A stretch of DNA of 64,000 nucleotides. It comes from Mobula hypostoma (taxonomy: Eukaryota). A program made the position numbers and the translations under genes. Position 1 is the first letter of the stretch. Each line of letters starts with the position of its first letter. The notes beneath the pieces were generated by a model. It was not told the origin of the DNA and searched no databases. It saw only the letters and a list, made by a program, of their open reading frames with translations. Below, in pieces: positions 462-4,714 of the stretch. The stretch lies in the NCBI RefSeq assembly GCF_963921235.1, contig NC_086128.1, positions 26,474,001 to 26,538,000 of the forward strand, in the 5' to 3' direction.

Positions 462-1779
462 TGTTAAGAGTGATTTTTGGGTTTAGGACATATACATTTA
501 GCAATTGACTTTGACTACCAATCTTCACATCTGAATATGCATCTTTTCTGACTGTTTTGTGGAATAAAGAAGCTGCTTTGTATCAACCAGTAACTTTTCT
601 CTGGTGACTTCATTCACGCAACAACATTTTCCCCTTTAAAAGAACGATACCTTTCTTCATTCCTGGCATACCCTGCAGTTGCCTGTGTACCATCTCGCAC
701 CCCCTGGGCCATCCTGTCTCACATACTCCTCAGGTATTTTGCTTTTATGAACACATGTATATCTTTAAGGTGCATCTGGTGAAATTCAACCACTTCCTCA
801 AGCTTGCGCCAGAATTCCGAATTTCCACAGGCGACTTTAAGTGAGGGCAACTCGGACAAAATGCTCTGTTTTTCCCCGGGGGTGCAGGGCTTATGAATAG
901 TCATAATCAAGGTTAAGGGTTGGCTCGGATTATCAGGGTTCTCAACCTGACATTGCCTGACCTCAATAGGTGCCATTCTGGTAGATATATCTGGGTAAAA
1001 CCTCTCCCTGAGATATCCACAAACTACTTCCCACACTACGCAAAATATAAAAGATGGGTACCAGTTAATCAGCACATGCTTAAAACCGCAGAGTATGTAT
1101 TCCACAATCTGCCACTTTTGAATACCTGAACTCATGATGCCTGCTGTATTCCTTTACATCACACTTGCAAAATGTGTACGCTAAAATGCAGCTCCCTGAA
1201 TGAGTATACACGCCCCCACTCTGGCATCCCGAACCGTCGGTAACCACCCTTCACAACTGGTGGCTCCGTCTCACCAAGTTAACACGCAAAGTTTCGTCTC
1301 TGACATAAACACACATGCACGCGCACACACTACTTTTATATCTACCAGTTCAGCTCTCCATCTTCATGATACCTCGTGTTCCCATGTACCACCGACCCGA
1401 ACAGATTTTTAAAAAATACTCACCCATTTAGACTGCTAAGATCGCTGGACACACGATGGGTCACGAAGGTATCCCACTCCTGACACCAAATCTTGTTGCG
1501 TGAATGAAACTGCCAGAGAGAATTACTGGTAGATACAAAGCAGCTTCTTTATTCCACAAAACAAGGTACAACCTTCACACCTCCTGATTCACATCCACAC
1601 TGCAGACATCCAAATGAATTTTAATCAGCATTGTCTGGTCCGGGAATCACAGCTTTTAGGAACCTGTTGTTCAGAGTTGCACTCCAAATTAAATCCACAG
1701 TACATTTTCAGATGTGAAGACCGGTAGCCAAAGTCAATTGCTAAATGTATATGTCCTAAACCCAAAAATCACTCTAACA
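462..1779 (-). mobile_element. Non-autonomous ERV/LTR element with inverted LTRs (5' LTR 1779-1491, PBS 1488-1471, PPT 637-627, inverted second LTR 462-626)
   Basis: TGTT...AACA termini and a 4-bp TSD ATGG (458-461, 1780-1783). Minus-strand TGGTGTCAGGAGTGGGAT is complementary to the tRNA-Leu(CAG) 3' end. Purine tract AAAGGGGAAAA abuts the second LTR. 462-626 is the reverse complement of both ends of 1491-1779. Confidence 0.85.
719..1135 (-). pseudogene. Gag-like ORF remnant inside the LTR element
   Basis: Lies downstream of the PBS. HKPCTPGEKQSILSELP resembles, from memory, the capsid motif of fish/amphibian epsilon-like retroviral Gag; not verified by search. Confidence 0.45.
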
Positions 1780-1983: not shown

Positions 1984-2103
1984 CTTCCCCTCCATGAGTG
2001 GGTGGTTGATGGATACATCTGGACGGTTGGCTCCCTGGGACATCTGCTCCGTCTCCTTGACTTTAACCTCTGCAATTAAGGGTAAGCCAATGTCCAGGGG
2101 AGA
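1984..2103 (-). CDS. ATF7: ATF7 coding exon 4 (SPLDIGLPLIAEVKVKE...MEGK); donor uncertain
   Basis: Acceptor tccctcag at 2104-2105. Peptide resembles ATF7 PLDMSLP..DIKIKEEE. Donor is either GC (AAG|GCGAGA) or GTAAGA 10 nt further. Confidence 0.7.
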
Positions 2104-2206
2104 CTGAGGGACATGTCCGGAGGAGGCAGTTAGTGGAGGATGCTCGCACTCCATTCCTCCTCACCACCCACCTCCTTCACCCTCACCGCCCAACTCATTA
2201 ACTGAC

Positions 2207-2589: not shown

Positions 2590-2876
2590 TGTGGACTCAC
2601 TCAACTCCACCACTGACACAACCCTCCCCACCAAATTCAAGAGGCGATGCCTCAAGAATGCAGCATTCATCATTTAAGGACTCTCACCATCTGGGACACA
2701 CCTTCCTCTCATCACTACCATCAGGAAGGAAGTACAGGAGCTTGAAGACCCACACTCCATGATTCAGTAACAACTTCCTCCCAACCAGCTTCCCAATCAC
2801 ATTTCTGAATGGTCCATGAGCCCATAAACACTCACTATTCTTCTTTTGCAGTATTTATTTATTTTGTAATTTGTAT
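2590..2876 (+). mobile_element. Rex/Babar-type LINE 3' fragment
   Basis: FKRRCLKNAAFII resembles the C-terminus of the minus-strand element at 24459-24734 (FKERCLRKAVSIIKD). Confidence 0.6.
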
Positions 2877-3217
2877 CAGTGGTCCCCAACCTCTGGGCCG
2901 CGGACCGATACATTGCCGCGAAGAATATAACGGTACAGCGGTGGCCAGAACGCACACAGCACATCTTTAAGAAAAAAGCCTAAATAAACAAGCTAATTAA
3001 TTAGGTGCCGCCCAGCAAGTAAATGTCAGCCCAGATCAGAGGTATTGCCGATTGCGCCGCCTCTGATCTGGGCTGACATTTACGTGCTGAGTGGCACCTA
3101 ATTAATTAGCTTGTTTATTTAGGCTTTTTTCTTAAAGATGTGCTGGGTGCGTACCGGCTACCGCTGTATTCTTCACAGCAATGCATCGGTCCGCAGCCTG
3201 GAGGTTGGGAACCACTG
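2877..3217. mobile_element. Palindromic hAT(Charlie)-like MITE, 341 bp
   Basis: Termini CAGTGGTCCCCAACC / GGTTGGGAACCACTG. The whole element is an inverted repeat centred near 3050. Imperfect 8-bp TSD atttgtat / atttatag. Confidence 0.85.
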
Positions 3218-3386
3218 ATTTATAGTGATTTTGCACTCTCAACAGTGGCTGGGAGAGAGACAGAGACTCAAGAGGTAGTGAGACACACACTCATACCGAT
3301 AAACTTGCTTCGTAAATCTTGTTTAACCCACCCCCACAAAACCACCTGCCCCCATACTTGAAGAATACAACCTCATGCCCACCTAC

Positions 3387-3480: not shown

Positions 3481-3948
3481 CTGTGGGGGGGGGGGGGGAA
3501 GGAAGGACACAGTTAGACCAGCCCACTCGCAGGGTGAGGGGGGAGGGAAACAAATTAGGCATTTCCTTTTACCGGATTGGCTCCAGCCCCAGCTGACTCT
3601 CCTCTTCTCACCCCTCCTCTAAACCAGAGTAATCACCTTCATACTTGTTACCCCTGACCCTTGGCAATATGGAGGTGGGAAGGAGTGAGCCCCCCGCCCC
3701 ACCCCACAGTACGTGTTTTAATGGGAGGGAGTGGGAAACCGTGTTTCTGAACCTCCACAGTCCGTGTGGTGTGGTTGGGGAGGAATGTCTCCCTGATATA
3801 CCAGTCCGTATAGTGAAGATTCCTTTGCACAGTAAACTGAGTCACAGAGTCACGCACATAGAAACAGGCCCAAGTCCAACCTGAGGATTGTCCCAGCCAG
3901 TGTCAAGCTTCTTCAGAGCTGTTGGAGCCACACTCACCCCAGGAAGGG

Positions 3949-4585
3949 GGAGTGTTCCATCACACTCCTGACCTGTAGACAGTGGAGAGGTAATGTGGTG
4001 GATGTGTAGTACATGGACTAACTCCACCTGGGAAAGTAGAGAATGTTCCATCACACTCCTGACCTGCAGACAGTGGAGAGGTAATGCGGTGGATGTGTAG
4101 TACATGGACTAACTCCACTCAGGCAAGTGGGGAGTGTTCCATCACGCTCCTGACCTCTAGACAGTGGAGAGGTAATGTGGTGGATATGTAGTACATGGAC
4201 TAAATCCATCCGGGCAAGTGGGGAGTGTTCCATCACACTCCTGACCTGTAGACGGTGAAGAGGTAATGTGATGGATGTGGAGTACATGGACTAACTCCAC
4301 ATGGGGAAGTAGGGAGTGTTCCATCACACTCCTGACCTGTAGACAGTGGAGAGGTAATGTGGTGGATGTGTAGTACATGGACTAACTCCACTCAGGCAAG
4401 TGGGGAGTGTTCCATCACGCTCCTGACCTCTAGACAGTGGAGAGGTAATGTGGTGGATATGTAGTACATGGACTAAATCCATCTGGGCAAGTGGGGAGTG
4501 CTCCATCACACTCCTGACCTGTAGACGGTGAAGAGGTAATGTGATGGATGTGGAGTACATGGTCTAACTCCAACTGGGCAAGTGT
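3949..4585. repeat. 91-bp minisatellite, about 7 copies, with a 273-bp (3-mer) superperiod
   Basis: gttccatcac recurs at 3954, 4045, etc. ORFs 4051-4287 and 4324-4560 are near-identical at offset 273. Confidence 0.9.
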
Positions 4586-4714
4586 GGAGGGGGACTCGGT
4601 GATAGAACACTTTGTGGCACGAGGAAGGGAGTTCCTTCAGCACAGGTGCATCTGCTCATACCCCAGGGATGCAACCAATAACCTTAGGACCACCAGACAA
4701 TGATTACCACTCAC

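Follow-up and report, generated by a model that had tools for sequence, protein, structure and literature searches.

The window, a stretch of 64,000 nucleotides of the Mobula hypostoma genome, contains near its start a retrovirus-derived element located in an intron of ATF7 and lying in the same sense as the gene. ATF7 exons map to both sides of the element, in agreement with the position assumed in the first-pass annotation: an exon at 1984-2106 (minus strand) lies just before the element in the direction of the gene, and the following exon was found outside the window, approximately 3.7 kb ahead of its first position (L099). ATF-7-like proteins of two rays match the exon at 2207-2326 with 100% identity. 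Other repeats were observed in the same window: a long MITE-like inverted repeat in an ATF7 intron at 2875-3219 (arms of 109 and 61 nt, matching at 94 and 85%), a tandem repeat with 7 copies of a 91-bp unit (3947-4589), located in the first coding intron of ATF7, and, at 42754-64000, 52-bp tandem arrays of approximately 51 and 352 copies with a strong GC skew, which reach the window end.

Read on the minus strand, the element begins with a 5' LTR (1491-1779) whose U3 start faces outward, from which approximately 130 bp are absent and in which the terminal CA is changed to GA. A TT spacer (1489-1490) separates this LTR from an 18-nt primer binding site (PBS) for tRNA-Leu(CAG) at 1471-1488. The PBS is followed by a leader (1154-1470), carrying a candidate splice donor, GGTGAGT, at 1418-1424, and by the 5' part of gag (629-1153), the frame of which is broken and which is cut upstream of the zinc knuckles. 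The last codons of this gag fragment, F-K-G-E, form a purine run (629-642) where homology to the family ends. Read on the plus strand, the opposite end of the element is an inverted LTR cap (462-626), with the U3 start as its outer end, the U5 end (CA) at its inner junction and an AATAAA at 563-568; approximately 255 bp are absent from the cap relative to the family LTR. The CA is followed by TT (627-628), the same two letters that part U5 from the PBS in normal copies. The element is flanked by two copies of ATGG (plus strand): the left one (458-461) lies within the 3' tail of a LINE-like host repeat, which we take to be CR1-like, and the same repeat picks up again at the right one (1780-1783). 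The locus is a 5' LTR-PBS-gag fragment severed in the middle of gag, with an inverted LTR as a cap, and both of its outer ends are U3. Its coding content is the 5' part of gag only.

The PBS and the Gag-like remnant proposed from the window alone were both confirmed. The complement of the PBS is the 3' end of host tRNA-Leu(CAG) genes, such a gene being found in two of the three host loci scanned, and relatives of the element extend the frame at 719-1153 into CCHC zinc knuckles. A Pfam search with the window's ORF returned no family at E 10, the gag identity coming from the relatives. In these relatives zf-CCHC, RVP, RNase_H, Integrase_H2C2 and rve follow one another in that order, with RT seen, by eye, as remnants only. 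The order gag-protease-RT/RNase H-integrase between direct LTRs is found in the relatives, and the family has a tRNA PBS after the 5' LTR, a PPT before the 3' LTR and a target-site duplication (TSD) within the range of 4-6 bp. For pol, the named proteins among 31 matches are vertebrate proteins, NYNRIN-like or uncharacterised, that carry retroviral RNase H and rve (best 44-48%); pol of the vertebrate ERV type is thereby the nearest kind of protein.

The LTRs of the subfamily are approximately 420 bp long and mostly solo. Analysis of 40 proviral loci gave 26 repeat pairs, 14 loci being without a pair; one non-LTR repeat and one tandem duplication (L081) were dropped, and all 24 true proviral LTR pairs that were kept are direct, with identities of 82-95%. 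The non-LTR repeat, L085, had been flagged as inverted, as had L188, which also turned out to be a non-LTR repeat and was dropped. Among solo LTRs of a first set the TSD was 5 bp in 8 of 10; it was 5 bp in 10 of 14 in a second set, one member of which (L231, see below) is no solo LTR. As judged from these sequences, the parent family is an abundant vertebrate endogenous retrovirus (ERV) with direct LTRs and 5-bp TSDs.

Several observations were made on the proviruses themselves. Many copies (L153-L190, L089) are without most of RT through internal deletions, some of them at shared break points, a hint that these copies spread with the aid of a helper. At C50:88.04 Mb (L022/L023/L081) a provirus lies in a tandem duplication with a spacing of approximately 4 kb and copies 97.6% alike. 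A 2.1-kb near-palindromic insertion was found in a provirus at C52 (L100, 5962-8049), with related insertions in L098.

The insertion site of the window element was compared with other copies of the host repeat. In 15 of 16 such copies the left flank joins the right flank directly, with a single copy of ATGG; the sixteenth is incomplete, the end of the locus cutting the comparison of its flanks. As the other copies are uninterrupted and hold these letters once, the ATGG is a true duplication. The 4-bp TSD described in the first-pass annotation is therefore real at this locus; as a trait of the family it fails, the parent family making 5 bp. An ordinary solo LTR, L250, also scores a 4-bp TSD, and the short duplication of the window element is an oddity or the result of a lost letter, not a sign of a Ginger-type transposon.

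The inverted arrangement of the LTRs was confirmed as well. The arms at 462-626 (plus) and 1491-1779 (minus) are reverse-complementary in three segments of 73, 41 and 35 nt, at 95, 98 and 83%, and in a predicted RNA fold they pair with each other, consistent with the pairing in ATF7 pre-mRNA that had been suggested. Overall the arms are approximately 92% alike (12 of 146 letters differ, some at sites variable in the family). They also share a rare allele, GG before AATAAAG, present in only 1 of 101 other copies. An identity lying within the range of the 24 proviral LTR pairs, together with the shared allele, points to one source and to the age of the family; these data fit a single source molecule as well as conversion at a later time. 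The deletions in the arms are likely a later event.

An assembly artefact, produced by a hairpin read or a misjoin, would also give an inverted LTR. No contig covers the junction with 31 letters on each side of it, and four further runs (three of one sample, one of organism B) yielded no contig bridging it. Run X1, taken to be RNA by guess only, holds exact interior pieces of the element. A contig of run X2, which may derive from the assembly's own sample, matches 612-772 without a difference and extends 15 letters into the LTR side. Against an artefact, the arms differ by approximately 8% and carry different deletions, and the element, bounded by a TSD, interrupts a host repeat that is otherwise continuous. 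An artefact is unlikely, and the least probable of the explanations considered.

The purine run at 629-642 had been read as a PPT, an assignment that the relatives contradict: gag continues past the run in all 65 relatives that reach this point (63 by motif, 2 by eye) among the 160 long loci searched, and the true PPT of the family is another tract, immediately upstream of the 3' LTR. With inverted LTRs and gag codons in place of a PPT, the copy does not have the structure of a retrotransposition-competent LTR element. Against all 65 relatives gag homology stops at GGGGAA; two letters stand between that point and the end of the reversed LTR. On the plus strand, the junction consists of the CA of the LTR, TT and reverse gag. 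The two extra letters are identical to the U5-PBS spacer, which is TT in the window's own 5' LTR and in 40 LTR-PBS matches (in the latter by construction of the search pattern), and we infer that they represent an unprocessed U5 end. They could instead stem from slippage on the A run or from a gag variant. Homology at the joint amounts to 2 letters, or to 5 if the source had the variant, found in 5 of the 65 relatives, in which ATG follows the purine run.

A genome search with the junction, in which 40 of 1098 candidates were scored, showed that all matches other than the window end at the purine run or at most 4 letters away from it; only the window itself crosses the junction, and the genome contains a single occurrence of the junction pattern. 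The search proposed in the first-pass annotation therefore uncovered no amplified inverted unit. Its suggestion that the 3' LTR had flipped precisely in place found no support in the form given, since the inverted LTR abuts the middle of gag and no PPT, pol or 3' half of gag lies beside it.

Two U3 ends were nevertheless found at other loci, against the notion of a one-off inversion among otherwise direct copies. L156 and L231 likewise have two U3 ends and are flanked by 5-bp TSDs in which 4 of the 5 letters match, a degree of matching with a chance probability of 0.017 at each locus. L156 consists of an LTR, TT, the full 18-nt PBS and then reversed U3 1-~130; its TSD is gaaac/GATAC, and the host repeat looks continuous by eye. 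L231 (TSD gcaat/GCAAC) consists of a full LTR whose CA is joined, in reverse, to the tract immediately preceding the PPT, beyond which lie integrase and RT, reversed, and then reversed U3 1-28. In L254, known from 4 kb covering one end, U3 1-201 is joined to reversed RT, gag and PBS. In L032 a 3' LTR cut at ~305 is capped by reversed U3 1-51; at the far end of L032/L100 two probes detected no 5' LTR or gag in approximately 50 kb upstream. The break points differ among the window, L156, L231, L254 and L032, and the separate break points of L156 and L231 suggest that such units formed more than once and were not amplified from one. Retrovirus-derived elements with a U3 at either end, one of the possibilities raised at the outset, thus do recur; their differing junctions do not fit the mobile, TIR-like family that had been envisaged.

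In L156 the switch falls within the final 6 of the 18 letters of the PBS and leads onto a look-alike of the PBS complement in U3 (11/14). This look-alike of the 3' end of tRNA-Leu is located at U3 ~134 of the family LTR (L032-L060) and may be an old captured primer. It scored at least 10/14 in 21 of 29 LTRs, compared with 16 of 2000 shuffles, and in neither of the two arms of the window element. Among 40 scored of 583 candidates, the PBS/U3 junction is common to L154 and L156 only. The two loci have different LTR variants and different layouts: in L154, which was scored as without a second LTR, the junction is internal to a provirus whose outer ends, U3 and U5, are ordinary and for which no clear TSD was seen. 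A common master for L154 and L156, suggested by TGTTACAG shared in their inverted pieces, was rejected on account of the different LTR variants and because the TGTTACAG variant also occurs in L195 and in the 3' LTR of L070. Short internal inversions in proviruses with ordinary outer ends were seen in L154/L223 (C1:110988451), L121 (7767-8074) and L171, and the family seems prone to inverted switches.

The frequency of such units was estimated from several samples. Of 38 newly fetched LTR-PBS loci, 19 had direct LTRs, 17 had no second LTR within 9.4 kb and 2 were flagged as inverted, one of them falsely. Inverted viral DNA was present at 2 of 60 unbiased U3 sites from which 4 kb downstream were read. 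Since sampling anchored on U3 counts a unit from either end, and since such units cannot collapse to solo LTRs, the rate of two-U3 molecules per integration is probably below 3%. Two lists of exact U3 sites (all 93 sites of one, 100 of 163 of the other) gave one facing pair each within 15 kb, the window and L156; these lists missed L231 and are hence insensitive.

The several U3/U3 units could be members of a TIR-like non-autonomous family mobilised as DNA, by an integrase or by a Ginger-type transposase. The window element resembles Ginger1 and Ginger2, as described in passages of PMC2836005, in its inverted TGT..ACA termini and its 4-bp TSD. According to the same passages, Ginger elements encode a transposase, have target preferences and amplify as a unit, whereas the window unit is made of the LTR, PBS and gag of a retrovirus with 5-bp TSDs, holds no transposase gene and exists as one copy in the genome; its TGT-starting terminal repeats are the LTR arms. 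Mobilisation as a family is further at odds with the single-copy junction of the window, with the varying break points and the 5-bp TSDs of the other units, and with the different LTR variants and layouts in which the PBS/U3 junction was seen twice. We regard this explanation as very improbable.

Plus-strand viral DNA begins at U3, and the PBS end is the natural end of plus strong-stop DNA. As the 5' end of the plus strand is U3, run-off synthesis is the simplest source of a second exact U3 end. We therefore favour, with a probability of roughly 0.6, the explanation that plus-strand viral DNA was copied back before integration and that integrase inserted the resulting linear molecule with its two U3 ends. 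The 3' end of a plus strand (strong-stop DNA or an unprocessed U5 end, ...CA-TT) would anneal in gag through 2-5 letters; alternatively, a growing plus strand would switch onto the U5/PBS boundary. Copy-back synthesis would then run off at the U3 start, defining the second U3 end, and the family integrase would insert the two-U3 duplex like ordinary viral DNA. If it was the long form that integrated, the present cap would be the product of a later collapse between LTRs. In support of copying back, the element occupies a single target site across which the host repeat is continuous, and the switch in L156 lies at the PBS end, where plus strong-stop DNA ends. The U5-PBS spacer letters at the point where gag homology stops, the similarity and shared allele of the arms, and the recurrence of inverted caps, at L156 and L231 with the family's 5-bp TSD, speak for it as well. 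Passages of PMC5041404 describe, for HIV and ASLV, polymerases that extend the end of a viral DNA with further viral sequence of either orientation. The window unit would be a dead single insertion, not open to another round of reverse transcription because it has no PPT and no 3' R in sense.

The same structure could have been formed after integration, the 3' part of a provirus being replaced by an inverted LTR through template switches at TGTT/AACA (the flip of the first-pass annotation with a deletion added), or a nested inverted insertion being trimmed by deletion. The LTR ends are short inverted repeats, internal inversions occur in the direct-LTR copies L121, L171 and L154, and passages of PMC5210030 attribute the inverted LTR of a guppy ERV to possible recombination. 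The window TSD, 4 bp and not 5, favours such a rearrangement and speaks against copying back. Every junction could also form or be trimmed post-integration, and in L156 deletion is favoured by the direct repeats which the PBS and its U3 look-alike form. Rearrangement requires, on the other hand, an exact break at the provirus-host border in the window, L156 and L231 alike, with the TSD kept, and neither of the full-LTR caps (window and L231) retains the true PPT. A rare allele common to both arms would not be expected of two separate insertions; that allele is a single character and could reflect gene conversion. The TSD evidence comes from the window, L156 and L231, the latter two matching at 4 of 5 letters. 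On balance we consider a post-integration origin unlikely.

Alternatively, the joint may have been made by integrase: a U5 end would attack gag of its own or of a second viral DNA in inverted orientation, the U3 ends would integrate and the inserted copy would collapse to a solo LTR. The junction of L231, which comes straight after CA, has the expected form, and according to passages of PMC5041404 HIV infections yield autointegrants and aberrant circles. The same passages state that integrase trims two nucleotides off each viral 3' end. The window junction retains the TT that integrase would have trimmed, and is therefore more readily explained by an end-join or by a switch of the polymerase than by integrase. 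In L156, L254 and L032 the cap is a partial U3 piece, with an inner end of a kind that integrase does not process, and more steps are required; an integrase-made joint appears less probable than rearrangement.

Comparison with known systems places the copy-back reading among aberrant proviruses. Those of HIV-1 and ASLV, in passages of PMC5041404, likewise combine a truncated viral end with viral DNA in either orientation, primed through short homology. In that type one end is normal and the other is inserted by host enzymes, with duplications of host DNA that are usually large, or with deletions, while the M. hypostoma units have two exact U3 starts and duplications of 4-5 bp and are germ-line and recurrent; at the window in particular, both ends are exact U3 and the host repeat continues across a 4-bp duplication, unlike a provirus integrated by one end. 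Guppy PrERV-1 (PMC5210030) is a fish ERV with one inverted LTR, as in the window element. It is described, in passages that contain no TSD or junction analysis, as a single full ERV whose 5' LTR is inverted (which would face U5 outward) and whose origin is left unclear. HIV-1 proviruses with asymmetric LTRs or internal inversions have been explained, in passages of PMC9278108, by template switching of plus strong-stop DNA, similar to our proposal; their LTRs stay direct, and those passages describe no form with two U3 ends.

Copy-back defective genomes of RNA viruses arise when the polymerase leaves its template and copies back, which produces complementary ends, and they replicate as RNA with a helper. 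Two-U3 units, by comparison, are integrated DNA dead ends. In the literature searched, which covered few subscription journals, no account of U3/U3 ERV integrants with TSDs was found, and among the papers listed an inverted LTR was mentioned for PMC5210030 only; in two passages of PMC12657518 the words "inversion" and "inverted" are absent. The window locus, itself a single insertion, belongs to a recurrent and apparently undescribed variant of the aberrant provirus.

That the family formed two-U3 copy-back DNAs as a matter of routine, helped by the tRNA-Leu look-alike and inserted by integrase with normal TSDs, we judge to be as likely as not. If it did, these units would form an unrecognised class of proviruses, amounting to a few percent of the sampled LTR sites and unable to collapse to solo LTRs, in which two LTR promoters are aimed at a viral fragment. 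Repeat annotation in any vertebrate genome would split such units into two unrelated matches, and the class would escape any LTR finder built on direct repeats.

If the two-U3 molecules were formed before integration, they would be evidence, from the germ line, for the in vivo use of two U3 ends by a retroviral integrase, and the loci would record where reverse transcription goes wrong, as at the PBS end in L156. LTR elements can yield units with inverted ends, the shape that a DNA-transposon derivative would need; none of these units was amplified here. With LTRs facing inward and arms predicted to pair, such units may also have been a source of double-stranded RNA directed against the family.
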